A stretch of 64,000 nucleotides of DNA from Candidatus Magasanikiibacteriota bacterium (GCA_018652595.1 JABIBU010000016.1:26911-90910); one strand, 5' to 3'. Counted from the first letter of the stretch, positions 1,364 through 61,757 are shown. Notes: generated by a model not told the origin, from the sequence alone. Numbers and translations: made by a program.

Positions 1364-1682
1364 AACTATGGATGGAATCGGAAAAATTCTAAAAAAGGTA
1401 GACGAACACAAGCCTAAACAGAACAAAAACATACACTCCGAAGCTCACTACTGGGCAGATGTTATCTCTACTGCATTTGGTGAAAAAAATAAGTTTGGCA
1501 TGTACTTGGGAGTAATAAAAAAAATCGGCGCCGATAGAGCTCAGCTGATTTTTAATGAATTAAAAAATTCAAATGTAAAAAGCCCAGGAAGACTATTTAT
1601 CTGGAAAAGCAATCCCAAAAATTTTATAGATCAAAACAAAAAAAATAATACTAATAAAGCATCCCTCTTCGGGAAGAAATGA
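1353..1682 (+). CDS. hypothetical small basic protein
   Basis: ORF only. A start at M6 (1368) is also possible. No recognisable motifs. Confidence 0.3.
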   Translation: MYYKTMDGIGKILKKVDEHKPKQNKNIHSEAHYWADVISTAFGEKNKFGMYLGVIKKIGADRAQLIFNELKNSNVKSPGRLFIWKSNPKNFIDQNKKNNTNKASLFGKK

Positions 1683-3105: not shown

Positions 3106-4587
3106 ATGCAAAAATTTCTAACTGAAAAATCAATCTTTTTTCAAAAACAAACTATGTTACTACTAGTTTTGTTTTTTTTACTCCGATTTGGTTCTTTTTT
3201 CTTGAATGGACATCTAATAATTCAAGGCATAATGGTTTTTGCACTACTAATGCTACTTGGAATTCTGTATTTCAAAAATCCTGATTGGGCATGGATGCTG
3301 GTATTGGGCGAAATATTTCTTGGTGGATCGGGTCACTATTTGGAATTCATTGGACTCTCAATTAGAACGCTATTCATTGGTTTCTTTTTATTCCTCTGGG
3401 CATCCGACAATATAGGCCGGAGTATACTGAAAAAAAGACTAAAAATTCACAAATATACAAACTGGATAATTTCACTATTATTTTTATCCTTATTTTTTGC
3501 TTTTGTAAATGGAATTTATCATGGCCACGAAGCTCATCGAGTGATTCAAGACTTTATGCCATTTACTTTTTTATTTCTTATTTTTCCATCTTATCACCTG
3601 TTCAAAGAAACAAAGATTCAAAACTATCTGGCTCGTCTAATGCTAGTCTTTATTATTGGGACAGCTATTTTTTCACTGTTTTCTTTTGGGCTTTTTTCAT
3701 TAGGAATTACCGAGATTCATGAGCCTTTTTACAATTGGTACAGAGACATCGATGTCGGAAAAATAACAGACATGGGAACTGGTTTTTTTAGAATAGTAGA
3801 GACAACCCATCTAATGATCGTACCTTTAATTTTAATAATATCATCACTATTAATGAGGAATGAGAAACACCATAAAATGTGGCGACTACTCCTAATACTA
3901 TCAATTATAATTCTAGTGCTAAATCTATCTCGTGGTTATTTCCTTGCTTTAGGGGTTGGGCTCCTAGTCTTGAAATACAAACACAAATGGAAACAGTGGA
4001 TAAAAGAATCGCTATACACAATACTGTTAGTTGTTGTAATTTTTTCTAGTCTACATTTTATGGCTAGCGCTGGACAGTCTTTTGGTTGGGAATTGTTCGG
4101 TGTTCGATTAAAAAGCTTTACTCAACCGCAAATTGAAGTTAGTACCAATACTCGAATGATGATCCTACCAAACATAGTACAAATGATTGGTCAAAATCCA
4201 GTCTTGGGTATAGGGCTTGGTGCAACTGTTACTTTTATAAATTACAACACATACGAAAGCCTTACAACACCACATTTTGACTGGGGGTATCTAGAAATGT
4301 GGGCAGAACTAGGCCTACCAGGCACTCTGATGCTTATATTTTTATATTGCTTTGTTGCGTATGCTCTAATAAAAAAAATAAAAGCCATCCCTGAGTGGCA
4401 TGACTTTGATGTTGGATTGCTAGCTGCTATTATATCCCTTCTAGTGATGAATATTACGATCGCAGCACTATTTCATGTCTTTGGAATTTTATTCCTGATC
4501 TTCGCACTCACTATTGCGACAAAATATACTGAAATTTTTGATAGAACCACAGCTTTGCTTTATCAGATGTTTAATCGAATGAAATAA
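3106..4587 (+). CDS. O-antigen ligase (Wzy_C) family polytopic membrane protein
   Basis: About 12 TM helices. Wzy_C-like loop motifs NLSRGYF, RMMILPNIVQMIGQNPVLGIGLGA and HFDWGYLEMWAELGLPG. Confidence 0.55.
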   Translation: MQKFLTEKSIFFQKQTMLLLVLFFLLRFGSFFLNGHLIIQGIMVFALLMLLGILYFKNPDWAWMLVLGEIFLGGSGHYLEFIGLSIRTLFIGFFLFLWASDNIGRSILKKRLKIHKYTNWIISLLFLSLFFAFVNGIYHGHEAHRVIQDFMPFTFLFLIFPSYHLFKETKIQNYLARLMLVFIIGTAIFSLFSFGLFSLGITEIHEPFYNWYRDIDVGKITDMGTGFFRIVETTHLMIVPLILIISSLLMRNEKHHKMWRLLLILSIIILVLNLSRGYFLALGVGLLVLKYKHKWKQWIKESLYTILLVVVIFSSLHFMASAGQSFGWELFGVRLKSFTQPQIEVSTNTRMMILPNIVQMIGQNPVLGIGLGATVTFINYNTYESLTTPHFDWGYLEMWAELGLPGTLMLIFLYCFVAYALIKKIKAIPEWHDFDVGLLAAIISLLVMNITIAALFHVFGILFLIFALTIATKYTEIFDRTTALLYQMFNRMK

Positions 4588-6000: not shown

Positions 6001-7140
6001 CTACATCCACTTACCAATCACTTTCATCTGACTATCCCACTTAAAATTTGCCCGAACCCTGATCCTTGCATTCTCAGATAATCTCTTGGCATATTCATCA
6101 TTATCAAACATTTCTGCAATTGATTTTATTACACTCTTGTCGCCCTTATATATATCGACTAGAACACCAGTCTGTGTGTGAAGCACTGCTTCTTCTACAC
6201 CACCACTCTTACCTGCCACAACAGGCAATCCAGCTGCCGCTGCCTCCAGATAGACCAAACCTAACCCCTCTTCTCTACCTTCATCTGGATGAGTAAGCAA
6301 TACAAACAAATCTGCCAAATGATAAAACTTGTTCAATTCTTCGTGTGGTACCTCACCAATAAACCTAACTACACTCTGCAAAGAATTCTTTTGTATTTCT
6401 TTTAACAAAAAATCTTTCTTCGGACCATCACCAACCACAAACCAAACCAAATTTGGAACTTCTTTCAATATCTCTGGCAACATTCTAATAAGATGAGTGT
6501 AACCCTTACCCTCATCCAGCCTGGCAACAGTTAGCATTACTTTTTTCCCTTCCAAGGCATACTGCGCCTTTAGACTATTATTTTCTTCCTCGCTCATTTC
6601 ATCATAAAAAATCTGCTCTGGACAAGGATACAGCACACTTGCCTTACTCTCATACTCGGGCAATACTTTTAATAGTCTGTGTTTCAAATTTTTGCTGTTA
6701 AATACAATCTGCTCAGAATCTTCCAAAACTTTTTTTAACATTCCTCGTTTCCACCTAGATCTGGTAGCATACTCTATATCTGTACCATGTGAAAAAACCA
6801 GATAAGGAATTTTTTTGAACTTTTTTATAAGCCTGGCTACATGCCCAACTGGCAATACGTGATGCAAATAAATTATCTCGATTTTTTCTTTTTTTATAAT
6901 TCGTAACACCTGAAAAAATAACTTGATCCATCTAGGCCAAATAAAGACCGGGAAAAGCATGTTTTTTCTAATTGTCTTAAATTTTTCCCCCTTATCAAAT
7001 TCTTTTGCATTCTTGTAGCCCGGTGCCAATACGACAACATCAGCTGGATCTAGCTCGCCAGCAAATTGACGAACATAACTAGCTATTCCACCAATCTTTG
7101 GTGGATACTCAAATGTAATAATTAATTTTTTCATAAACAA
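6001..7140 (-). CDS. glycosyltransferase family 4 (GT-B)
   Basis: C-terminal EGLGLVYLEAAAAGLPVVAGKSGG motif of GT1/GT4 enzymes. Confidence 0.8.
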   Translation of the reverse strand: MFMKKLIITFEYPPKIGGIASYVRQFAGELDPADVVVLAPGYKNAKEFDKGEKFKTIRKNMLFPVFIWPRWIKLFFQVLRIIKKEKIEIIYLHHVLPVGHVARLIKKFKKIPYLVFSHGTDIEYATRSRWKRGMLKKVLEDSEQIVFNSKNLKHRLLKVLPEYESKASVLYPCPEQIFYDEMSEEENNSLKAQYALEGKKVMLTVARLDEGKGYTHLIRMLPEILKEVPNLVWFVVGDGPKKDFLLKEIQKNSLQSVVRFIGEVPHEELNKFYHLADLFVLLTHPDEGREEGLGLVYLEAAAAGLPVVAGKSGGVEEAVLHTQTGVLVDIYKGDKSVIKSIAEMFDNDEYAKRLSENARIRVRANFKWDSQMKVIGKWM

Positions 7141-7159
7141 ATACTTTAAAAACTTTATC

Positions 7160-7184
7160 AGAGCATACCGATGCCCTGTGGGTA
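7160..7184. repeat. core copy of the 27-nt repeat family (gatgccctgtgggta)
   Basis: agagcataccgatgccctgtgggta in the intergenic region between the GT4 and flippase genes. Confidence 0.6.
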
Positions 7185-8737: not shown

Positions 8738-9127
8738 ATGAACAAAAAGGAGAAAACGAGTGAGCTGAACCTAACAACCAGGAGACGAAGCTACAGAAAA
8801 AGAACTATCAAATTCAGAGGGCGCTTCTATCGCCTGAATGGGATAGAAAGAGAATTTGATTGCGTTGTGGCTGGTGACAGACTCATCACCAAACTCACCT
8901 GCCCGAACCACCCTCAAAGGGCTTACGGCCAATGGGAACTGGAAGTGGCTGACGTGGTACCGTGCAAAGACTACGAAGATCTTGTGTACATGACATGTTT
9001 CCTGCGTTACAACTACAGCCCTCACGACCTCAGAAAAGTTGTATTCATCACCCTCTTTGCTTATCCAGACGGAAGAGGCTGGATTCACTCAATCTGCCAC
9101 ATGGAACGTGAGAAGAGGAGGAAATAA
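8738..9127 (+). CDS. hypothetical protein (GC-rich islet, basic N-terminus)
   Basis: 129-aa ORF with elevated GC (about 48%) relative to surroundings. Own consensus promoter at 8670-8698 and tandem terminators. No recognised domain. Confidence 0.5.
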   Translation: MNKKEKTSELNLTTRRRSYRKRTIKFRGRFYRLNGIEREFDCVVAGDRLITKLTCPNHPQRAYGQWELEVADVVPCKDYEDLVYMTCFLRYNYSPHDLRKVVFITLFAYPDGRGWIHSICHMEREKRRK

Positions 9128-9190: not shown

Positions 9191-9296
9191 TCAACTGCTC
9201 CAGCTCTGAAATTATTCAGATCTGAAGTAGGAGAATTTACGGATGGTTTTTTGTTTTAAAACAAAAAACCCTGCTTTCGCAGGATTTTGTATTTTA
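9191..9296. terminator. tandem terminators; the second is bidirectional (ends the 8738 gene and rpsI)
   Basis: catccgt…acggatg + GTTTTTTGTTTT, then aaaaaa-ccctgc-tttc-gcagg-attttgtatttt. Confidence 0.6.
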
Positions 9297-9310: not shown

Positions 9311-9337
9311 TCCCCGTAGAGGGATGCTCTGTGGGTA
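9311..9337. repeat. 27-nt dispersed repeat tccccgWagagRgatgcYctgtgggta (copy downstream of rpsI)
   Basis: tccccgtagagggatgctctgtgggta. 24/27 identical to 44052-44078; 15-nt core gatgcYctgtgggta also at 7170-7184. Confidence 0.7.
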
Positions 9338-9346
9338 AATCGTGTT

Positions 9347-9754
9347 CTAACGCTTTCTCCACTGATGAGCTCTTCTAGCACGATGAAGTCCTGGTTTCTT
9401 TCTTTCTTTTGCTCTTGGATCACGTGTCATATAGCCTTCAGCTTTCAAAGCTGGTTTCCATTCTTCATTCCACTTTACCAATGCACGAGAAATTCCATGG
9501 CGTACTGCCTCAGCTTGAGAGTTTACACCACCACCAATTACTTTTACACTTACATCAAAATCTTTTTCTTTTCCTACAGCCTTTAGGGGTGCTATTACTT
9601 TGTCACTCCAAAGATCTACAGGAAAATATTCTGGTAATGTTTTACCATTAATAGTAACAACTCCTTTTCCTAAAGTAATTTTTACTCTGGCAGCAGATGT
9701 CTTTCTTCTTCCGACGGCTCTCACTAAATTTTGATCTTCTTTTACCATATTCAA
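9347..9754 (-). CDS. rpsI: 30S ribosomal protein S9
   Basis: GRRKTSAARV motif and C-terminal ...RARRAHQWRKR, typical of S9. Confidence 0.95.
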   Translation of the reverse strand: MNMVKEDQNLVRAVGRRKTSAARVKITLGKGVVTINGKTLPEYFPVDLWSDKVIAPLKAVGKEKDFDVSVKVIGGGVNSQAEAVRHGISRALVKWNEEWKPALKAEGYMTRDPRAKERKKPGLHRARRAHQWRKR

Positions 9755-15971: not shown

Positions 15972-17084
15972 TTACTTAATAACTCCCCCACCCAAACATT
16001 CACCATCCAAATAAAACACACAAAACTGCCCCGGTGCCACAGCCCTTTGTTTTTCTTCAAATTCAACAATTAACTTGTCATTCTTCATTTTGCATTCTGC
16101 ATTTTGCATTTCTTGTCTATGTCTCAACCTGACATCACATTTCAAAGGCATATCCGGAGTTTGACCAGTAATCCAATTTACATCTTCAATTTCAATCTCA
16201 CTCTTAAATAATAACGGATCATTATCATACCCCACAACCAATTCATTTGTCTCAAATCTCTTTTCAACCACAAACAATGATTTTGTATCATTACTCTGAA
16301 CACCTAAATGTCTCTGTCCTATAGTATAAAAAGCCAAACCCTCGTGCTCGCCAATTACTTCCCCACTACTCATAACAATTTTTCCGGGTTTTAGTTTTAT
16401 TTTACTTTGCAAAAATTCTTTCATATCCACCTCACCCACAAAGCAAATCCCCATGCTCTCCTCCTTATTAGCTGTAGGAAGATCAAATCTATTGGCCAAC
16501 TCTCTTACCTCATCTTTTTTATAATCACCAAGAGGGAACAATGTCCGACTCAATTGTTCTTGATTTAACTGGTGCAAAAAATATGTTTGATCCTTATTAT
16601 CATCTTTTGCCTGCATCAAGGTGTGAAGCCCAGAATCTGCGGTCTGAAGTCCGGCATAGTGCCCTGTCGCAATCTTGTCAAAACCTAAATCTCTTACTTT
16701 ATCCAACCAAAATCCAAATTTCACCCATCGGTTACACATCACATCTGGATTTGGTGTTCTTCCCTTTTTGTATTCATCAAACATATACTTGAGGACTGTC
16801 TCCTCATACTCTTTTTTAAAATCTAATTTTAAGAGTGGAATACCAAGCTTCGCTGCCACACGAGTAGCATCACGATAATCACCAACCCAACAGGGCTTCG
16901 CTTCGCTATGCCCTGTAAACTCATCATCTGAACTTGTCGGGCCTAGTCCAGAAGACGAAGTCTGATAATTTATCATATAAGCCCCAGTGACATCATATCC
17001 ATGTTCCACTAGCAAAGCAGCAGCTACAGACGAATCCACACCACCACTCATAGCAACTAATATTTTTTCCTTTTTTATCTTCAT
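15972..17084 (-). CDS. mnmA: tRNA 2-thiouridine(34) synthase MnmA
   Basis: PP-loop SGGVDSS, conserved Cys residues, C-terminal beta-barrel. Confidence 0.9.
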   Translation of the reverse strand: MKIKKEKILVAMSGGVDSSVAAALLVEHGYDVTGAYMINYQTSSSGLGPTSSDDEFTGHSEAKPCWVGDYRDATRVAAKLGIPLLKLDFKKEYEETVLKYMFDEYKKGRTPNPDVMCNRWVKFGFWLDKVRDLGFDKIATGHYAGLQTADSGLHTLMQAKDDNKDQTYFLHQLNQEQLSRTLFPLGDYKKDEVRELANRFDLPTANKEESMGICFVGEVDMKEFLQSKIKLKPGKIVMSSGEVIGEHEGLAFYTIGQRHLGVQSNDTKSLFVVEKRFETNELVVGYDNDPLLFKSEIEIEDVNWITGQTPDMPLKCDVRLRHRQEMQNAECKMKNDKLIVEFEEKQRAVAPGQFCVFYLDGECLGGGVIK

Positions 17085-29005: not shown

Positions 29006-29998
29006 TTAAAACCAAAACCTTAATCCACTCCAGTCAACTTTTCTCAACTCCTTAATCTTCAATCTTTCGGTCTTCAGTCTTTTTCTGTTCTTCCAAACTT
29101 CTCCCAAACCCTTCAAAACACTTCTATCAAATAATAAAAACCAGGCAAACTTCTTTAATTCATACCATAAAATCCAAGGCAAGTCAAGCAAAAAGTTTTG
29201 CCAGTATTCATTTTTATAGAGTGCGGTCAGCTGATTTTTGTAACTGTGATACTTGACCCAATCGGATTGTTTTTTCTTATTCTTTGACGCAGACCGATCA
29301 CTTTTCTTTTCTAAACCTTCTGCAGATCTATCATGATAAGCAACTGAATCTAACAAAACAAATGCCTTGTGACCAGCACTACGCAATCTAAAAGCCAAGT
29401 CTACATCTTCTTTATAACTACCAAAACTCTCGTCAAACAAATCCACTCTATCAATTACTGATTTTCGAAACATTGGCAGAGCACCAGAAACACCAAATAC
29501 CTCACACACTTGGGCGCTTTTTTCATTCCATTCTTCACCAGTAGCAATTTCAGTTACTCGCCTGCTACGAGAAACTCTTAATCCTAATGTGTCTATTTTA
29601 TTAGTAAATTCTTTATTAACAAAATCCCACCTCATAAGACGAGGGCTGACAACCGCTATGTCTGTATTCTGGTCCGTAAACTTTGCCAACTTCTCCAAAC
29701 AATCCGGTTTCAAATACACATCCTGATTTAGCAACAAAAAATATTCTGAACTATTTTTCTTATTAAGTTCATTGTGTCCTTTTGCAAAGCCTAAATTTTC
29801 TTTACCTTTTGTAAAATTTATATCAACAGGAAAACTTTTAATTTCTTTTTCAATTTTTTCTACAGTTTTATCTGTTGAACCGTTATCTAAAATCTTTAGT
29901 TCCCAATCAGCGAAACTTTGCTTTCTAAGAGATTCAAAAAGAAAAGGAATATACTTTTCTCCGTTCCAGGTTACAAGATGTACTGACATTTTTTTCAT
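29006..29998 (-). CDS. glycosyltransferase family 2
   Basis: SVHLVTWNGEKYI…ILDNGSTD GT-A signature. Confidence 0.7.
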   Translation of the reverse strand: MKKMSVHLVTWNGEKYIPFLFESLRKQSFADWELKILDNGSTDKTVEKIEKEIKSFPVDINFTKGKENLGFAKGHNELNKKNSSEYFLLLNQDVYLKPDCLEKLAKFTDQNTDIAVVSPRLMRWDFVNKEFTNKIDTLGLRVSRSRRVTEIATGEEWNEKSAQVCEVFGVSGALPMFRKSVIDRVDLFDESFGSYKEDVDLAFRLRSAGHKAFVLLDSVAYHDRSAEGLEKKSDRSASKNKKKQSDWVKYHSYKNQLTALYKNEYWQNFLLDLPWILWYELKKFAWFLLFDRSVLKGLGEVWKNRKRLKTERLKIKELRKVDWSGLRFWF

Positions 29999-35670: not shown

Positions 35671-36108
35671 ATCCTGAGCGTAGCGAAGGATCTCTCCTAC
35701 CTCAGATTTTATTTAATAATTAAAATAATGGTCTAATTTTTGACATTGTAACCACATTGTCGTATAAATCATTCCAATCTTTATTGTTCTTTTCAATAAG
35801 TTCTATTTTTCTTTTTCTAAGCCACCCCTTCAATTCTCTTTCTCTATTCATTGCTTCATGTTTAAAATGAAAATGTTCCCAATATATCAATCTATTAACT
35901 TTGTATTTCTTTGTGAAAGCATTATCAAATGTGCCTTTTTTATGTTGGTTAATTCTTTTTACTAGACAATTTGTAAAACCAATATAAATTACTTTGCTTA
36001 TGCTAGCAGTCACGTATACATAATAATTTTTCCTCCTAGGTATCATATTAAAATGTAAGTATTTATTCTTCGAAAGATCCTTCCTCGGTCTTGAGACCTC
36101 CTCAGGAT
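35671..36108 (-). mobile_element. inverted-repeat-flanked mini-cassette carrying the GIY-YIG nuclease gene
   Basis: atcctgagcgtagcgaaggatct (35671-35693) versus agatccttc-N17-ctcaggat (36075-36108). Termini agatccttc / ctcaggat are perfect reverse complements. The right IR overlaps the NUDIX stop codon. Confidence 0.5.
35720..36046 (-). CDS. GIY-YIG nuclease family protein (small, homing-endonuclease-like)
   Basis: YYVYV…IYIGFT…R…H…G…E GIY-YIG catalytic motifs in a protein of about 100 aa. Start taken at the internal M (MIPRRKNYYVY); the longer ORF overlaps the NUDIX gene. Confidence 0.7.
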   Translation of the reverse strand: MIPRRKNYYVYVTASISKVIYIGFTNCLVKRINQHKKGTFDNAFTKKYKVNRLIYWEHFHFKHEAMNRERELKGWLRKRKIELIEKNNKDWNDLYDNVVTMSKIRPLF

Positions 36109-37131: not shown

Positions 37132-39348
37132 TTATTTTTCTAAGTTTTTCAACCCCTCTTCCCAAACTAATAATCCATCAACTTTTTGCACTTCGCTATC
37201 CATAATTTCATTAATTCTACTTACAATCTCAATATCTAAATAATCTTCATATACTACTACACACTTTCCACCGCCGGTTAACCCTTTCATCCTGTGCAAA
37301 TCCTCTACTGCTGGATATTTTGCAAATTTATTAAACATATCAACTCGCTCTGTCTGTCCAAACTGATAATCAATAGGAAAACCACCACCCACAATCTCAC
37401 CCGAACTAACACCCTCCAAAGCTAGTAAAAACCAGGTGTCGCCCAATACGCAACCTGGCTTTTCTACCCAAACTTTTTGAGCAACTTCATACTCATTGAC
37501 TGAAATGACCCTATCGTCCAACCCGCTCGCATATACAAAAGTTCCAAACCAAGAAAATATAATCAAACAAACTACTGTACCAATTCTGACAAATAAATCT
37601 CGTGCTCGCCATCTAACTAGCGATCTTTGTAGCACATAAACTATCAGAACTATCCAGAGAAAAGAAAACATAAGCTCGAGCCTACGAGTAAATAACTTAT
37701 CTCCGGCTAAAATAAACCAACCAATCACATATCCACCAACTACTGTGGAAGTTAAGAATAAAATAAGCAAATGAATTTTATTTTTCTTTTTTAATATTTT
37801 GAAAACACCAAACTTGGATAGCCCAACCATGATTATCATAAATGGAATCAGCCACCAGCGCCAAGTATTAAAAATATTTGAGACAAACGCATAGTCTGGT
37901 GTGTGATTGAACAAAACATTTCCACCTAGAATATCATGTGGTCGAATCATTTGTGCGTAGAAAAACCCGGTAAACCTACCAATAATTTGCTTCAAACCAA
38001 ACCACCATTCAATACTATCTGGAATAAAACTTATTTTACTAACAATCTCGATAATAGGAAAAATAAAGATTGATAAAAATAGTAAACTATATTTTGAAAT
38101 GTTTTTTGGGATTGAAGCTTTTGGAAAATATTTAATTATAATTGAAAACAAAATTGCTAACCAAATCAAAATAAAATAAAGTGAATAGCCAAACAGCATT
38201 AGCACTGCAAAAAATAATGTTAGATTCCTTTGTGTTTTATTACCATCACGCAAATACTGCAACCACAGCATTAGAGCAAACAGAAATGTGATAAAACCAA
38301 GACTAACTGGCAAAGTAAGCCCGCCCCAAGCCTGAAATGGAAATGCAAGAAACATAAACCATGGCAACCACAATCCCCGCCTGACCGAACCAAACAAAAT
38401 CCAACCAAGACGAAACAAAATAAACGGCATACACATTGACCAAAGTATCGGGACAAGCCAGCGATTAACTACAAGTAAATCTACTTGCAAAGTTTGTGAA
38501 AGCAAAACAGAACCACCCCAAAGCTGTCCATAAGTGTACTTGTGTGGCTTTGTAAGGACTTCTGGAATGTCGACTCCCGCTACTTCTACCCACTGGGCGT
38601 CTTCACCGACTAGCACTGGCAAAATCTGTTCTTCTTGCATTAGTATCTTTTCATTTGCCAAATGTCGCCAAACATCTCCACCCCAAGGCATCTGATGTGA
38701 CATTGGGATATATAAGTGAAGTAAAATTGATTGAAAAAGAAAAATAAATAAAATTGTCTTAGTCTTATATTTGGAAAATAAAAATATTCCAGAAAACAAA
38801 GTCAAAACAAAAAATATTAATAAATAATATTCACTAATAGCTTGCCAAGGTGAGCGTAAAATCTCGCTTGATTTACTAATATATAAAAAATAAAAGCCAA
38901 TCACCCATAAAATAAAGTAAGTAATTGGCAAAACAAAAGTTTTTTTGAAAATAACTAGGTTCTCGTCTCTAACATCCAATAAGACTGGTTTTTTTCTTTT
39001 GGAATTTTGGACGAAATAAAAAATTACCAGAGACAAGACAGTGGTCACAGCATATGTGAACCAAACCAAAGACAAACTCAAACGATCAAAAACAATAAAA
39101 ACAGAACTAATAAAACTTAAGAGTAAAAAAACTGACAGATAGGAAAATATTCTCGTCATCCACAAACGCCTACTGAGCCACAAAACCTTTCTATAGACCA
39201 TTTGCCAATACTCACCAACTAATAGCAGATAACTCGCAAATAAAATCCAACCCAACCAAGAATATGACCAAAAATTTAAATTAAAAAATAACAAAATCAA
39301 GACTGATAGTAATCCAATAATTTTTATTTGTTTTTGAAAAAAATTCAT
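37132..39348 (-). CDS. large polytopic membrane protein (about 18 TM plus C-terminal soluble domain), possible GT-C-type glycosyltransferase
   Basis: 738 aa, highly hydrophobic. Conserved loop HQMPWGGDVWRH after the early TMs. Paralogous architecture to 41170-43305. Confidence 0.45.
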   Translation of the reverse strand: MNFFQKQIKIIGLLSVLILLFFNLNFWSYSWLGWILFASYLLLVGEYWQMVYRKVLWLSRRLWMTRIFSYLSVFLLLSFISSVFIVFDRLSLSLVWFTYAVTTVLSLVIFYFVQNSKRKKPVLLDVRDENLVIFKKTFVLPITYFILWVIGFYFLYISKSSEILRSPWQAISEYYLLIFFVLTLFSGIFLFSKYKTKTILFIFLFQSILLHLYIPMSHQMPWGGDVWRHLANEKILMQEEQILPVLVGEDAQWVEVAGVDIPEVLTKPHKYTYGQLWGGSVLLSQTLQVDLLVVNRWLVPILWSMCMPFILFRLGWILFGSVRRGLWLPWFMFLAFPFQAWGGLTLPVSLGFITFLFALMLWLQYLRDGNKTQRNLTLFFAVLMLFGYSLYFILIWLAILFSIIIKYFPKASIPKNISKYSLLFLSIFIFPIIEIVSKISFIPDSIEWWFGLKQIIGRFTGFFYAQMIRPHDILGGNVLFNHTPDYAFVSNIFNTWRWWLIPFMIIMVGLSKFGVFKILKKKNKIHLLILFLTSTVVGGYVIGWFILAGDKLFTRRLELMFSFLWIVLIVYVLQRSLVRWRARDLFVRIGTVVCLIIFSWFGTFVYASGLDDRVISVNEYEVAQKVWVEKPGCVLGDTWFLLALEGVSSGEIVGGGFPIDYQFGQTERVDMFNKFAKYPAVEDLHRMKGLTGGGKCVVVYEDYLDIEIVSRINEIMDSEVQKVDGLLVWEEGLKNLEK

Positions 39349-40168: not shown

Positions 40169-40294
40169 CCCACCCACCCTATAACCCCGCCTCGTTCACA
40201 GCCATCCTGGCTGAGTCTATCGAAGCGCGGGTTTTCCTTTTTCTAAGGATATTATTGCATTTTCTTAATATAAATTCAAGTTTGTTTATAAGTT

Positions 40295-40434
40295 CCCCTC
40301 TCCTTTATAAGGAGAGGGGCTAGGGGTGAGGTCTCACAGAAGCAACGTAATATCTTCACTGTAAAACCCTACTCCCACGCTCATTTTAACCTCATCCTGT
40401 CCTTCTCCTTGTTAAGGAGAAGGAACGTTCTAAG
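40295..40434. repeat. double-hairpin repeat element, copy A (module 1 40295-40333; module 2 40384-40434)
   Basis: Module 1: cccctctcc-tttataa-ggagagggg + ctaggggtgaggt. Module 2: ttttaacctcatcctgtccttctcc-ttgttaa-ggagaagg-aacgttctaag. Nearly identical copy at 52706-52814; half copy at 49118-49154. Confidence 0.7.
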
Positions 40435-40518
40435 ATTTTTATTAATAATTTGTTATGTAACAAAAAAACCACCATAAAGTGATTCAAAGCCTAATACCTA
40501 ACCCACCTAAACACCTAA

Positions 40519-43371: not shown

Positions 43372-44442
43372 TTAAATTTTACCAACCAATTCTTCGATAT
43401 TACCCGGCTCCACCAAAATATCATCCTCACAAACAATCTCCCTCACCCCACCGGTGTCACTCGCGATTACTTTCAAACCATGTTCATGTGCTTCATGAAT
43501 AACGGTTGGATTATTCTCTATACAAATTGAAGGAAAAATTAAAGTACTGCATTTTTTATAAATACTTTCCAAATCTTCTCCTTCTAATCTACCATAAACT
43601 TTTACATTATTCTTATTATACGCCCAGCTCTCCAATTCTTCTCGCAAAACCCCATCACCAGCAATATGGAATTCTTTATCACCACCAACCTTATCCCATG
43701 CCTGCATCAAAATACGAATGCCTTTGTGTTTCACTAACGATCCTACGAATAAATATTTTTGATTTGGCACATCTTGCCTTCGTTGTACTGAACAGGCATG
43801 CCTGTTCCCTACCACCACATTCCATTCTGCATTTTTAAAAAACCCTCTCTCTTCATAAAACTTCTTCAAAAATCTTGAAGGTGAAATCACATCACCGACT
43901 CCTATAAATTTCCTCTTCATAATCCCCGAATATATTCTCTGCCAAACATTATCCTTCTCATGATTCCACGGCAATACCCCACTAGGCTCCACCAACTGAA
44001 CATCGTGCAGATAATGAATCCATTTCCCTGTGAACTCCGAACTGTGAACTCTCCCCGAAGAGAGATGCCCTGTGGGTACGAACTCATACCCAATCCCCAT
44101 CAAATTATGTGTCTCCACTACATCTGGTTTTTCTTCTACCAAAATCTCTTCAATAGCTTTCGGTTTTTTAAAAATGTCTATAAAATGCCAAATTAATTTC
44201 AAAACAAATCCGTGCTTACTCAGATCTTTATAGTAAAAAATATTTGGTATCCAAACTCTATATACTGTAATACCATTTTCATTATTTTTTTCTATTTTGG
44301 GATTCTTGTCAGCTTTAGTTGTAATTACAATAACACTATCCCCTTTTTTCTTGTATTCCAAAGCTCGAGCTTGAACTACTATTTCAGCTCCACCAACAGC
44401 GTTATCCCCGTATAAATTATTTATTAAGCAGACTTTAGCCAT
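43372..44442 (-). CDS. glycosyltransferase family 4
   Basis: GT-B fold; C-terminal EAHEHGLKVIASDTGG motif. Contains an in-frame copy of a 27-nt repeat (44052-44078). Confidence 0.75.
   Translation of the reverse strand: MAKVCLINNLYGDNAVGGAEIVVQARALEYKKKGDSVIVITTKADKNPKIEKNNENGITVYRVWIPNIFYYKDLSKHGFVLKLIWHFIDIFKKPKAIEEILVEEKPDVVETHNLMGIGYEFVPTGHLSSGRVHSSEFTGKWIHYLHDVQLVEPSGVLPWNHEKDNVWQRIYSGIMKRKFIGVGDVISPSRFLKKFYEERGFFKNAEWNVVVGNRHACSVQRRQDVPNQKYLFVGSLVKHKGIRILMQAWDKVGGDKEFHIAGDGVLREELESWAYNKNNVKVYGRLEGEDLESIYKKCSTLIFPSICIENNPTVIHEAHEHGLKVIASDTGGVREIVCEDDILVEPGNIEELVGKI
44052..44078. repeat. 27-nt repeat copy embedded in-frame in the GT4 CDS
   Basis: tccccgaagagagatgccctgtgggta, encoding …GHLSSGRVHSS… on the minus strand. 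Confidence 0.65.
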
Positions 44443-46008: not shown

Positions 46009-46020
46009 ACAAAATAATTT

Positions 46021-46068
46021 AAGCCTTTCAAGCTTCTCAGGCTTCTCAGGCATTTTAAGCATTTTATT
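46021..46068 (+). repeat. AT-rich intergenic motif family (aagcctttcNagcttYtc…ggcattttaagc…ttatt) copy 1
   Basis: aagcctttcaagcttctcaggcttctcaggcattttaagcattttattt directly precedes the ybaB ATG. Related copies at 53230-53275 and 59693-59731. Confidence 0.55.
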
Positions 46069-46069
46069 T

Positions 46070-46366
46070 ATGTTCAACAAGCTAAAGCAGTTCAAAGACA
46101 TCCGCGACCAAGCCAAAGACATGCAAAACAAACTAGCAGAAGAAAGCGCCAATGCTGAAAGTGGTGGAGTATCTCTTACTATGGATGGTAATTTGAAACT
46201 TACAAAAGTAAATGTTAGCCCAGAATTACTCAACCCAGACAAAAAAGCCAAGTTAGAAAAAGCTTTTCGAGATGCTCACGATGACGTAAGTAAAAAAATC
46301 CAAAAAATAATGGCTACCAAAATGAGAGAAATGGGTGGCATGCCAAATATTCCTGGGCTAAGTTAA
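46070..46366 (+). CDS. ybaB: YbaB/EbfC family nucleoid-associated protein
   Basis: MFNKLKQFKDIRDQAKDMQNKLAEE… matches YbaB. The upstream part of the ORF (45893-46069) overlaps the dnaB end and is unlikely to be coding. Followed by recR. Confidence 0.8.
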   Translation: MFNKLKQFKDIRDQAKDMQNKLAEESANAESGGVSLTMDGNLKLTKVNVSPELLNPDKKAKLEKAFRDAHDDVSKKIQKIMATKMREMGGMPNIPGLS

Positions 46367-49001: not shown

Positions 49002-49117
49002 ATCTTAAAATTTCTAACTATCTAATTCACCTAATTTCTAATAAAATTCTAAATTCCAAATCTTGCTTCTTATATTTTACCTAAAATCTCAACATTTAAC
49101 AAGTTTACTTAGCACGT

Positions 49118-49154
49118 CCCCTCTCCTTTATAAGGAGAGGGACAGGGTGAGGTA
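49118..49154. repeat. double-hairpin repeat element, copy B (module 1 only)
   Basis: tcccctctcc-tttataa-ggagaggga-cagggtgaggt, in the divergent region between the MraY/WecA-like gene and the GC-rich secreted-protein gene. Confidence 0.65.
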
Positions 49155-49253
49155 TCGCAGTAACTTGACAAAGTGAGGAAAATGTTGTTAAATAAAGATA
49201 AAGTTTTGAGAAAACCGACCCGGCTTTGGGTCACAATCGCATGGAGGTTTATC

Positions 49254-52685: not shown

Positions 52686-52705
52686 AAATAGATCATTCCT
52701 TTATT

Positions 52706-52814
52706 CCCCTCTCCTTTACAAGGAGAGGGGTTAGGGGTGAGGTCAATCACTTTAGGTTTCTAGTTTTAACCTCATCCTGTCCTTCTCCTTGTTAAGGAGA
52801 AGGGACGTTCTAAG
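52706..52814. repeat. double-hairpin repeat element, copy C (module 1 52706-52744; module 2 52764-52814)
   Basis: cccctctcc-tttacaa-ggagagggg-ttaggggtgaggtc … ttttaacctcatcctgtccttctcc-ttgttaa-ggagaagg-gacgttctaag, located between the clp ATPase start and the upstream gene. Confidence 0.7.
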
Positions 52815-52824
52815 TTTTTTAATT

Positions 52825-53172
52825 TTAAACTAGTAGTAGCATATACACTACAAATATAGGCAAAGCCAAATAAACTAAAAATAAAAACAAGACTACAAAA
52901 GTCCATAACAATAAAAAAATGGAACGAAAAATCACGTTCCAAAATCTAACAAACACACTCATAAGAACCCCTTGAATATCACGCTGACCATACATGGGTA
53001 CAAAAATATTTTTCATCCAAAGAAATGGCACAAACTGAGCATTACCATCTTGGATCAAACGAAAACAAAACAAGGCCGCTCGCTTGGCTCCGCCGGTATA
53101 CCACCACAGCGGAAAATAAAGCAGATCAAGAAAAAATTCCAAAAACATTCGTTGTAATACGAGAATCCACAT
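52825..53172 (-). CDS. hypothetical small membrane protein
   Basis: Hydrophobic 116-aa ORF. The longer start (53232) would be encoded by the 53186-53240 inverted-repeat element, so the shorter start is preferred. Confidence 0.35.
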   Translation of the reverse strand: MWILVLQRMFLEFFLDLLYFPLWWYTGGAKRAALFCFRLIQDGNAQFVPFLWMKNIFVPMYGQRDIQGVLMSVFVRFWNVIFRSIFLLLWTFVVLFLFLVYLALPIFVVYMLLLV

Positions 53173-53185
53173 AGTTAAAATGCTT

Positions 53186-53275
53186 GAAAGGCTTGAAAAG
53201 CCCAAAAGGCTAGAAAGGCAAAAGTATTTCAAGCCTTTCCAGCTTTTCTGGCATTTTAAGCCTTTGTATTATATC
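53186..53275 (+). repeat. AT-rich intergenic motif family copy 2 with preceding 13-bp inverted repeat
   Basis: gaaaggcttgaaa (53188-53200) :: tttcaagcctttc (53227-53239), then caagcctttccagcttttctggcattttaagcctttgtattat. Confidence 0.55.
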
Positions 53276-53286
53276 ACAAAAATAAA

Positions 53287-57095: not shown

Positions 57096-57133
57096 AATTT
57101 TCAGGGTACACTGATGCCCAAGGTATCAATTAT

Positions 57134-59649: not shown

Positions 59650-59731
59650 GCTTTTTCTAAAAAGCCTTTTTAGCTCTACCTGTCGGTAGACAGGCTTTTC
59701 CAGCTTTTCAAGCCTTTTAGGCATTTATATT
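59650..59731 (+). repeat. AT-rich intergenic motif family copy 3
   Basis: Hairpin cctgtc-ggta-gacagg followed by ggcttttccagcttttcaagccttttaggcatttatattATG (start of the 59732 gene). Confidence 0.55.
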
Positions 59732-60406
59732 ATGCGTCGAAATATCGAACAAATAGAGATCAAGGAGCCACCTATTCAAGAACTGGGCAAAAAAAGATCT
59801 TGTCTAAAAAGAACTTGTTTTACTGGCTGTGGCTGCATAGTTATCTTTATTATTGCTTCTATTTTGTTATTAAAATTTGCTACTGGACCCAGAACAAAAA
59901 AATTGAATGAAGTTCCAGATAATTTTCCTGAATCAGTCCCGCTTTATGATTCAGACAATATTGAAGAAATAACCTTTACTTCCGGAAAAGAAAAAGGTCG
60001 TGCACTAGAGATTGTCGCCTTTGTTCCAAAATTAATCCTATCTCCTATTATTTTAGGGCTTGACAAGGAGGATAACTCTGGAACTGGTATCAGCATGAAT
60101 ATTAAAAAGACAGGCACTTGGAAAAACTTTGTAAACATAATGAAAGAACCTGTAGTCGATCACCGCGATACAATCCAAATAGAATGGACTGAGATGCCTG
60201 CCGAACCTTGGTTTGTGCAGAGCTACTATGAAACAGAATTAAAAAGTTTTGAGCACATCACAGAAAGAGATAATGAAAAAGATAATACCATTCGTAGGTT
60301 GAATTTTGAATTAGATGAAATAGAAGGTATACTATATATAGAAGACAATCCCACACAAGGTGGAACTGATTATGTATTGTTAACCGTAAAAACCCCTATA
60401 AAATAA
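59732..60406 (+). CDS. membrane-anchored hypothetical protein
   Basis: ORF with N-terminal TM. Start immediately follows an intergenic repeat motif. Confidence 0.4.
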   Translation: MRRNIEQIEIKEPPIQELGKKRSCLKRTCFTGCGCIVIFIIASILLLKFATGPRTKKLNEVPDNFPESVPLYDSDNIEEITFTSGKEKGRALEIVAFVPKLILSPIILGLDKEDNSGTGISMNIKKTGTWKNFVNIMKEPVVDHRDTIQIEWTEMPAEPWFVQSYYETELKSFEHITERDNEKDNTIRRLNFELDEIEGILYIEDNPTQGGTDYVLLTVKTPIK

Positions 60407-61346: not shown

Positions 61347-61757
61347 AGTAGAAAGGTAAAAGTATAAAGTAGAAAGATTATGTCTTTAGAAAAATTTGAA
61401 GATATAATTGCCTGGCAAAAAGCTGGCAAACTTACTTTAAGTGTCTATAAAACCTTTAAATGTTGTAAGGACTATAATTTTAAAGATCAAATACAAAGAG
61501 CTACAGTATCAATAATGAATAATATTGCCGAAGGGTTTGAAAGGAAATCAAATAAAGAGTTTATAAGATTTTTGTACATTGCAAAAGGATCTTGCGGAGA
61601 AGTTCGATCAATGCTCTATTTGGCAATTAAATTAAATTATATAAAAGAAGAAGATTTTCAAGAGTTTTATAATAAATCAGTAGAAATTTCCAAGATACTT
61701 TCCGGATTAATTAAATCACTCAAATAACTTTCTACTTTTACCTTTATACTTTCTACT
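61347..61757 (+). mobile_element. inverted-repeat-flanked mini-cassette carrying the four-helix-bundle gene
   Basis: IR-L agtagaaaggtaaaagtataaagtagaaag (61347-61376) and IR-R ctttctacttttacctttatactttctact (61728-61757); terminal 9-mers perfect and duplicated. The cassette fills exactly the corA-murJ intergenic gap. Confidence 0.55.
61380..61727 (+). CDS. four-helix-bundle protein (23S rRNA intervening-sequence protein family, TIGR02436-like)
   Basis: AWQKA…VY…RATVSIMNNIAEGFERKS…EFIRFLYIAKGSCGE matches the family consensus. Flanked by 30-nt inverted repeats. Confidence 0.75.
   Translation: MSLEKFEDIIAWQKAGKLTLSVYKTFKCCKDYNFKDQIQRATVSIMNNIAEGFERKSNKEFIRFLYIAKGSCGEVRSMLYLAIKLNYIKEEDFQEFYNKSVEISKILSGLIKSLK

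Follow-up and report, generated by a model that had tools for sequence, protein, structure and literature searches.

A 27-nucleotide hairpin repeat in intergenic spacers and in a glycosyltransferase gene of a Candidatus Magasanikiibacteriota bacterium

The gene at positions 43372-44442 on the minus strand of a 64,000-nucleotide (nt) stretch of DNA from Candidatus Magasanikiibacteriota bacterium (GCA_018652595.1, JABIBU010000016.1:26911-90910), in the following called the window, encodes an intact GT4-family glycosyltransferase of 356 amino acids. Within this gene, at 44052-44078, lies a 27-nt repeat that is also found in two spacers of the window, one following rpsI and one following wzx. Here, we describe this repeat, its copies in related genomes of the candidate phyla radiation (CPR, Patescibacteria) and its occurrence in frame in coding sequences. 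Analyses of the host contig JABHXG010000002.1 (Candidatus Magasanikbacteria metagenome-assembled genome (MAG) GCA_018657365.1) refer to 83 kb, i.e., the window plus 19 kb. The window has a G+C content of 36% and its GC skew is negative throughout.

The repeat and its copies in the window

An earlier note on this DNA, made from the sequence alone, had reported that positions 44052-44078 and 9311-9337 agree in 24 of 27 nt and that a 15-nt core recurs at 7170-7184. The two sequences, tccccgaagagagatgccctgtgggta and tccccgtagagggatgctctgtgggta, indeed read as stated, and the 15-mer GATGCCCTGTGGGTA is present exactly at 7170-7184 and 44064-44078 and with one mismatch at 9323-9337. The copy at 7170 is, however, not limited to 15 nt but extends over 27 nt (7158-7184). 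When up to two mismatches are allowed, the 15-mer has four matches in the window compared with 0.03 expected, a number reached in none of 100 dinucleotide-preserving shuffles, and with up to three mismatches no match to the 27-mer appeared in any of 100 shuffles; the recurrence is thus beyond chance, as had been claimed. Three of the four matches are copies of the element. The fourth (38587-38601, two mismatches, opposite orientation) is part of the conserved coding motif DAxWVEV of a 738-residue protein and is unrelated to the element, because the motif is also present in the orthologs at loci L010, L012 and L014. Chance similarity or a shared coding constraint could nevertheless be considered for the family as a whole, as the exact 15-mer is present in at least 119 stretches of GTDB genomes, which are mostly chance coding matches in GC-rich genomes (e.g., encoding YPQGI), although four further CPR copies are among the matches listed. 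This explanation is refuted by the expectation for the window, by the fact that two of the window copies are non-coding, by the different reading frames of the two copies in coding sequences (see below) and by the conservation of the flanking tails, and we regard its remaining probability as negligible.

Copy A (7158-7184, minus strand, TACCCACAGGGCATCGGTATGCTCTGA) is located in the 55-nt intercistronic spacer that separates wzx from the second GT4 gene of the window and forms the hairpin CAGGGCAU/AUGCUCUG. Copy B (9311-9337, minus strand, TACCCACAGAGCATCCCTCTACGGGGA) was rightly described as intergenic: it is situated in the 3' untranslated region (UTR) of rpsI, whose stop codon (9347-9349) precedes it by 10 nt, and is followed after 22 nt by the operon's intrinsic terminator (9265-9288, minus strand). 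Copy C (44052-44078, minus strand, TACCCACAGGGCATCTCTCTTCGGGGA) is the one in the GT4 gene. In all three, the minus strand, sense for each of the adjacent genes, reads TACCCACAGRGCATC. A degenerate copy (57101-57125, minus strand, TACC--TTGGGCATCAGTGTACCCTGA), lacking 2 nt relative to its class (class 2, see below), lies in the mraZ-rsmH spacer and ends 5 nt before the rsmH start codon, and a decayed one (1649-1675, plus strand, TACTAATAAAGCATCCCTCTTCGGGAA, class 1), altered by G/C to A/T changes, overlaps the final codons of an open reading frame (ORF) for a hypothetical protein of 104 residues just upstream of def. The copies in the window are 2-35 kb apart and do not form the regular array that is typical of CRISPR repeats.

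Comparison with the copies of other genomes revealed a repeat unit of exactly 27 nt that consists of a 15-nt head, TACCCACAGGGCATC, identical in all intact copies and lying on the strand that is usually sense, and a 12-nt tail of which there are two classes. Class 1, TACCCACAGGGCATC-CCTCTnnGGGGA, comprises copies B and C of the window and those at loci L010, L026 and L085. Its tail (CCTCTnCGGGGA) forms a 3' hairpin of its own with a 5-bp stem (UCCCU/GGGGA) and a variable tetraloop (CUUC, CUGC, CUUU or CUAC), and the head itself is unpaired. In class 2, TACCCACAGGGCATC-nGTATGCTCTGA, to which copy A and the copies at L012, L124 and L130 belong, the tail pairs back onto the head segment CAGGGCAU, yielding an 8-bp stem. 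Paired cells amount to 97% in class 1 and 87.5% in class 2 as opposed to 31-80% in slid controls. Changes within the stems include one compensatory exchange of C-G for U-A, and G·U pairs are possible on the TACCC strand only. The head reads (A)TACCCAC in every copy. The ends TACCC and GGGGA provide just a weak match of 4-5 nt as terminal inverted repeats, and conserved inverted repeats in the flanks, for which the earlier note had suggested looking, are absent apart from the element's own hairpin. The tetranucleotide GTAG does not occur in the 27-mer and was found only in a separate 28-nt palindrome of the GT4 gene.

Established identities for the element were sought without success. None of the copies is followed by a T-run as expected for an intrinsic terminator, no promoter-like match (-35/-10 with 16-18 nt spacing) overlaps copy A or B, and Rfam families gave no hit that reached the gathering score, neither in the window nor in 20 loci, while around copy C there was no hit at E ≤ 1; a tRNA identity was likewise negative. 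For CCACAGGGCA, the resemblance to a DnaA box or to RNase P was limited to partial matches. A phage origin is rejected, as both class-specific patterns are missing from IMG/VR.

In-frame copies in two glycosyltransferase genes

In the GT4 protein, the element lies in a hypervariable linker (44013-44087, minus strand) that connects the conserved motifs HNLMGIG and KWIHYLHDV (Y119-G139) and contains a 14-nt tandem duplication, GAGTTCGGAGTTCA/CAGTTCGGAGTTCA. Copy C sits within the first unit of this duplication and encodes V-PTGHLSSG-R (V122-R131). Of the sequence GHLSSGRVHSS assigned to it originally, RVHSS belongs to the pre-existing linker. The nine inserted codons are absent from all 20 aligned GT4 orthologs. 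The distance between HNLMGIG and KW(I)HYLHDV is 21 residues in the window protein, 7-21 residues in the nearest clade and constantly 12 residues in distant orthologs, and when precisely positions 44052-44078 are removed, the ORF remains intact and its linker, YEFGVHSSEFTG, has 12 residues, the length seen in the distant orthologs. The junction created by this removal, TAT GAG TTC GGA GTT (YEFGV), can be compared directly with TAT CAG TTC GGA GTC (YQFGV) in L010, which holds the closest, syntenic GT4 ortholog. Given the site TTCG|GAGTT, a target-site duplication is impossible; the arrangement GAGTTCG[element]GAGTTCA CAGTTCG GAGTTCA, which might be taken for one, was rejected because both the comparison with L010 and the 27-nt deletion assign the 14-nt tandem repeat to the linker. 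In this single unambiguous case, sequence comparison thus shows a precise insertion of 27 nt without target duplication.

An AlphaFold2 model of the GT4 protein (mean predicted local distance difference test score (pLDDT) 84, predicted template modelling score 0.83) has a single segment with pLDDT below 50, residues 123-135 (PTGHLSSGRVHSS), between the strands 108-112 and 140-144. According to this model, translation of the element adds a disordered loop to the surface of a GT-B fold that is otherwise normal. The match of the N-terminal domain to the respective families is weak (PF13439, 29.6 bits with a cut-off of 28.5; PF13579, 21.6 bits and thus below the cut-off of 29.7). The proposal that the repeat forms a loop-like insertion, which preserves the frame by virtue of its nine codons, is borne out. 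The class 1 sequence of copy C is free of stop codons in all six frames and, together with the nine-codon length, this explains how class 1 copies in permissive disordered loops can be translated and survive. Positions 44052-44078 are a class 1 copy that landed in a permissive loop and is translated.

A different fate of the insert, bypass or removal instead of translation, would be reminiscent of the 'byp' elements or of the hop in gene 60 of phage T4. With 27 nt, the insert is at the lower end of the sizes of byp elements, and it contains a strong UUCG-type hairpin. Furthermore, GC clusters of yeast mitochondrial DNA (mtDNA) are thought to be the source of bypass elements (PMC4464245). On the other hand, the insert keeps the frame, contains no stop codon and is flanked by codons unlike take-off/landing pairs. 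Simple translation into a disordered loop accounts for all observations, and we consider bypass scarcely credible.

A second in-frame copy resides in a gene for a GT2 glycosyltransferase at L026, a locus from a Patescibacteria MAG of a marine biofilm. It also belongs to class 1 but is read in another frame and encodes D-THRASLCG-E (DTHRASLCGE) as compared with VPTGHLSSGR in the GT4 protein. The GT2 ortholog of the window (29006-29998), which is 63% identical to the L026 protein, lacks the entire block. The L026 insertion site likewise falls into a pre-existing 21-nt tandem repeat, and target-site duplications and heptad footprints around the coding copies were both rejected. Both coding targets lie within short tandem duplications in variable loops (14 nt in GT4, 21 nt in GT2). 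As each genome's insert is absent from the ortholog of the other and the encoded peptides are not the same, it is DNA or RNA that is conserved and not protein. Together, the precise GT4 insertion and the independent GT2 insertion support the idea of the earlier note that a small repeat can enter coding sequences without destroying the gene. Neither of the two outcomes that the note had named as speaking against it was encountered: the orthologs do not share the nine residues, and further copies do exist, both in the genome of the window and in its relatives. Two of the roughly 12 known copies are intragenic.

The GT4 ortholog group has also acquired other inserts, with at least three different palindromic or tandem sequences in three variable loops across the relatives. 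The 28-nt palindrome mentioned above (GTAGGGAACAGGCATGCCTGTTCAGTAC, 43785-43812, minus strand) is in frame in variable region 2 of the window gene and encodes GNRHACSV. Its half-site CAGGCAT resembles the core CAGGGCAT of the 27-mer, to which it is possibly related, and its GTAG head resembles that of repetitive extragenic palindromic (REP) sequences. Three copies (2447, 2543 and 2675) are present in the L012 ortholog, two of them flanking a 96-nt duplication. The GT4 orthologs of L012 (~2206-2225, linker) and L136 (~3120-3139, region 3) contain, at different positions, an in-frame 20-nt insert that is a perfect palindrome, GGGCAGGTCGCGACCTGCCC. It is read in different frames in the two (GQVATCP and GAGRDLP) and represents a second palindrome family invading coding sequences. 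Finally, runs of the heptad AAAATGC occur in the GT4 linker of L136 (2757-2785), beside the element in the GT2 gene of L026 (~760-792) and at the 3' end of the mnmA ORF of the window (~16099-16140). They are identical over at least 20 nt between unrelated genes of different genomes, and in coding sequences they comprise three units (21 nt), which keeps the frame.

Filled, empty and decayed sites in related genomes

When 594 kb of AT-rich CPR DNA were searched with a profile, nine full copies, each with E ≤ 5.5e-6, as well as graded degenerate copies were retrieved, and intact copies are found in at least five related CPR genomes. The element appears to be confined to the closest relatives, as judged from 728 kb of GT4-anchored metagenome loci, in which the loci of more distant Magasanikbacteria-like GT4 homologs contained no copies. 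Nine independent assemblies (NCBI, ENA, Logan) present the same GT4 gene with the same element and the same flanks and, therefore, the element is not an assembly artefact. Most copies are located in AT-rich spacers just past stop codons, ahead of terminators or between cistrons.

Three sites are particularly informative. In the wzx-GT4 spacer, copy A of the window is intact, the corresponding 27-nt copy of L219, likewise of class 2, has two mismatches in the head and a stem that is broken, and the site is empty in L217 (aaagCTA|TAAAGTTCATAAA); a target-site duplication at this site could amount to no more than an ambiguity of 0-3 nt (ATA). In the rpsI 3' UTR, the window is intact, the head is gone from L217, where a hairpin persists at the same boundary, and L219 is devoid of the element. 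The third site, a spacer between a gene for a protein of ~710 residues and its terminator, is empty in the window and in L014. In L010 it is occupied by a class 1 copy oriented in sense, and in L012 by a class 2 copy that points the other way and shares the right-hand boundary. The flanks of L010 and L012 are collinear on both sides of this site, so that no segment was inverted. L219 has further degenerate copies at 1701-1727 (S11-S4 spacer) and 6981-7007. Comparison of these sites shows that copies have been gained and lost at different places across the genomes of one Magasanikbacteria clade. Copies at non-orthologous sites of different genomes have identical heads, and old orthologous copies have diverged; such a pattern is to be expected if the family has kept spreading or is being homogenized, but not if the copies were a set of operators fixed long ago.

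The arrangement around wzx bears on the possibility that the repeats are sites of site-specific recombination, such as att sites, cassette boundaries or inverton arms. Between copies A and B, direct repeats at a distance of 2.1 kb from each other, lie wzx and an ORF for 129 residues, so that the two copies could bracket a mobile wzx cassette; polysaccharide genes, with which the element is associated, are often phase-variable, and orientation differs between L010 and L012 in one and the same spacer. However, the order rpsI-orf-wzx-GT4 is maintained in L217, L218 and L219 (the ribosomal protein S9 of the relatives is 85-86% identical), irrespective of whether the element is present, decayed or absent, no recombinase is encoded nearby, inverted pairs do not occur at any locus, and nothing is inverted between the collinear flanks of L010 and L012. 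The conserved synteny in L217 and L219 largely refutes a role of A and B as cassette or att boundaries, and we judge recombination sites to be a very unlikely explanation.

The distribution also invites comparison with DNA uptake sequences (DUS) and uptake signal sequences (USS) or with chromosome-organizing signals such as Chi, KOPS or parS. A short conserved sequence is common to related genomes, coding loops tolerate copies, and the four minus-strand copies of the window point one way on what the uniformly negative GC skew identifies as one replichore. Yet the density in the host contig is ~1 per 17-20 kb compared with ~1 per kb for DUS/USS, the copy at 1649 follows gene orientation and not the replichore, orientation is reversed at the site shared by L010 and L012, and units of 15-27 nt are too long for Chi or KOPS and not palindromic as parS is. 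A function of this kind is most improbable.

More weight is due to the view that the element acts in cis, be it as a stabilizer or processing signal of mRNA 3' ends or intercistronic regions or as a site bound by a clade-specific protein, that it is selected in spacers and that the copies in coding sequences are by-products. The 15-nt head is invariant over at least six genomes in which neutral spacers cannot be aligned, and the positions are stereotyped: after stop codons, between cistrons and, in copy B, L010 and L012, 21-28 nt before terminators. Of 11 independent loci, 9 have the element in sense (one-sided p = 0.033), the G·U pairs function on the sense strand only, and the genome of the window has kept the old copies A and B intact. 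Orthologous copies have, however, decayed or disappeared in L217 and L219 despite the same operon structure, two copies (L012 and L085) are antisense, and the genes that would be served (rpsI, wzx, mraZ, alaS and the gene for S11) are unrelated. In addition, the lack of an Rfam family, of promoter-like matches and of T-runs described above speaks against such a role, which the copies in coding sequences cannot have. As the explanation of the family, we hold cis-acting function to be unlikely, if quite conceivable. The shared RNA- or protein-binding site offered as an alternative in the earlier note is not needed for the intergenic copies, for which a cis-acting role at the RNA or DNA level is possible.

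Some further features of the window and its relatives deserve mention. The 129-residue ORF between rpsI and wzx (8738-9127, plus strand) has no Pfam match and is convergent on the rpsI terminator; in its place, L219 has a different ORF for 116 residues and L217 none, and the spacer of the relatives is variable and full of GC-rich hairpins. Additional families of GC-rich hairpin repeats populate the spacers of the window. One is a composite GC-rich repeat of ~125-155 nt with two intergenic full copies (40293-40448 and 52704-52828) that are 92-95% identical and a solo half at 49116-49156. Its hairpins, CCCCTCTCC..GGAGAGGGG and TCCTTCTCC..GGAGAAGGA, bracket the complementary sequences GGGGTGAGGT and AACCTCATCC, and it could be an element similar to MITEs (miniature transposable elements with inverted repeats) or a small RNA gene. 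Similar CCCCTC..GAGGGG hairpins were seen in spacers of L012, L217 and L219. Arrays of 3-5 tandem 9-nt units (AAGCYTTTC/AGGCTTCTC) at 46012-46080, 53170-53281 and 59683-59742 end at GGCATTTTAAGC and a TATTAT-like box directly upstream of start codons and, in this CPR genome, may represent promoter iterons or iterons that bind a regulator. A small stand-alone ORF for a GIY-YIG nuclease domain is located at 35720-36046 (minus strand), with a second one just outside the window (L216, 5325-5591). A PF05635 protein (23S rRNA intervening-sequence/Avd-like) is encoded at 61380-61727 (plus strand) and has no reverse transcriptase nearby, and the relative L010 has an RVT_1 gene ~10 kb from its GT4 gene.

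Relation to known repeats and interpretation

Among known systems, the REP sequences and bacterial interspersed mosaic elements (BIMEs) of proteobacteria come close. Like the 27-mer, they are imperfect palindromes of 20-40 nt that form hairpins, are dispersed in 3' UTRs and between cistrons, mostly oriented with transcription, have a conserved single-stranded head beside the hairpin, cause no target duplication and are presumed to be mobilized in trans. They differ in that their head is GTAG and not TACCC, in being strictly extragenic and of high copy number, whereas some 27-mers are intragenic and there are five per 83 kb including the decayed ones, in the position of the class 1 head outside the palindrome and in their hosts, which are not CPR bacteria. 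The gene for the cognate REP-associated tyrosine transposase (RAYT; Y1 transposase, PF01797), which REPs usually flank, was not present among the gene calls of the 83 kb.

With respect to coding sequences, the Rickettsia palindromic elements (RPEs), in-frame insertions in Rickettsia genes that have been referred to as 'selfish DNA in protein-coding genes' (PMC10969869), offer a parallel: they are palindromic, are inserted in frame into unrelated genes at sites compatible with the fold, as seen here for GT4 and the L026 GT2, are also found in spacers and reside in a reduced, AT-rich genome. RPEs are, however, ~100-150 bp long and encode a family peptide in one frame, while the coding copies of the 27-mer are read in different frames, and no sequence relationship between the two was apparent. 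In the AT-rich mtDNA of yeast, GC clusters are inserted in VAR1 (PMC4464245). They, too, are GC-rich palindromes of an AT-rich genome, mostly intergenic and thought to be mobile without an enzyme of their own, and they are in frame in a gene for a hypervariable protein, VAR1/rps3, whose length they alter; the differences are their organellar host and the fact that the GT4 site of the 27-mer allows no duplication. Both RPEs and GC clusters are, in our reading, several-fold longer than the 27-mer. GC clusters measure 30-50 bp and are often accompanied by short flanking target repeats. Bacterial MITEs (Correia, RUP, ERIC, Nezha and others) are non-autonomous dispersed repeats that can likewise generate in-frame fusions, but they have 50-500 bp, terminal inverted repeats and target-site duplications of fixed length, none of which applies to the 27-mer, and no insertion sequence (IS) from which it might derive was found near the element.

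The exact 15-mer TACCCACAGGGCATC also constitutes the 5' arm of the hairpin TACCC-ACA-GGGCAT...ATGCCC-TnC-GGGTA in repeats that, among the matches listed, occur in Lachnospiraceae (L036, L041, L044, L051, L057, L062, L072, L083 and L132) and Bacteroidales (L045, L128 and L133). These repeats of gut Firmicutes and Bacteroidales are intergenic, multicopy and sometimes tandem (units of 63 and 273 nt) and stand beside unrelated housekeeping genes; no common neighbor gene, transposase or Rfam match was found for them. They differ from the CPR element in tails, lengths and tandem arrangement, and their hosts are phylogenetically remote. That the 15-mer is shared may be coincidental, may result from convergence on a host factor common to these bacteria or may reflect an enzyme family present in both groups. 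In the literature searched, we found no published description of repeats of the present kind in Patescibacteria.

Taken together, we consider it fairly probable that the 27-nt element is a lineage-specific miniature mobile hairpin repeat similar to REPs and RPEs that is tolerated in disordered protein loops. The sites seen so far show a preference for AT-rich spacers near stop codons or terminators and for DNA rich in tandem repeats. The invariant head beside the hairpin would then be the recognition module of a mover acting in trans, and the tail would merely have to be able to form a small hairpin. Candidates for such a mover would be a nuclease or transposase that acts on single-stranded hairpins by chemistry of the REP/RAYT or IS200/IS605 type, which leaves no duplication; alternatively, the element might spread by gene conversion or template switching. 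Recognition of the head would explain why heads at non-orthologous sites are identical while old orthologous copies decay.

Several observations weigh against this interpretation. In the 83 kb of contig, no gene product matched a transposase or integrase family of Pfam, and no candidate enzyme was visible there, only the small GIY-YIG ORF and ordinary housekeeping genes. Copy number is low, with three intact and two decayed copies in these 83 kb, and presence/absence polymorphism in populations was not observed, as every assembly with this GT4 gene has the element. With six to seven sequences, covariation in the stems is not significant and is equalled by 149 of 500 shuffles. Copies A and B are old, having orthologous counterparts in relatives, yet they are (near-)perfect here, which could mean purifying selection or concerted evolution instead of selfish spread, and the sense bias hints at a role at the RNA level. 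Moreover, no characterized mobile repeat is known to be as short as 27 nt. A mobile, selfish repeat and a cis-acting role are, at the same time, compatible and not mutually exclusive.

A bolder version of the same interpretation, which we regard as speculative and rather improbable, would make the 27-mer an active, trans-mobilized element and the shortest mobile repeat described, inserting precisely and without target duplication into spacers and coding loops of CPR genomes, preferably at sites immediately upstream of terminator hairpins and short tandem repeats. The head would be the recognition site of a putative enzyme, the head shared with Lachnospiraceae and Bacteroidales would point to a widespread enzyme family, and elements of this kind would quite generally give rise to variation in loop length among CPR enzymes for surface polysaccharides.

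The genomes of CPR bacteria are, as a rule, portrayed as streamlined and as containing few repeats. The window analyzed here contains very small GC-rich hairpin repeats that not only occupy spacers but also lengthen proteins in frame. Inserts of this type can mislead the alignment of CPR orthologs, the scoring of domains and phylogenies based on indels. If a mobilizing enzyme exists, it would represent a new minimal system for DNA insertion, and if the head instead serves regulation or processing as a signal, it would be among the first cis-elements defined for the phylum. Since the GT4 group has at least three different inserts, such elements may be a real source of length variation in the cell-envelope glycosyltransferases of these episymbionts.

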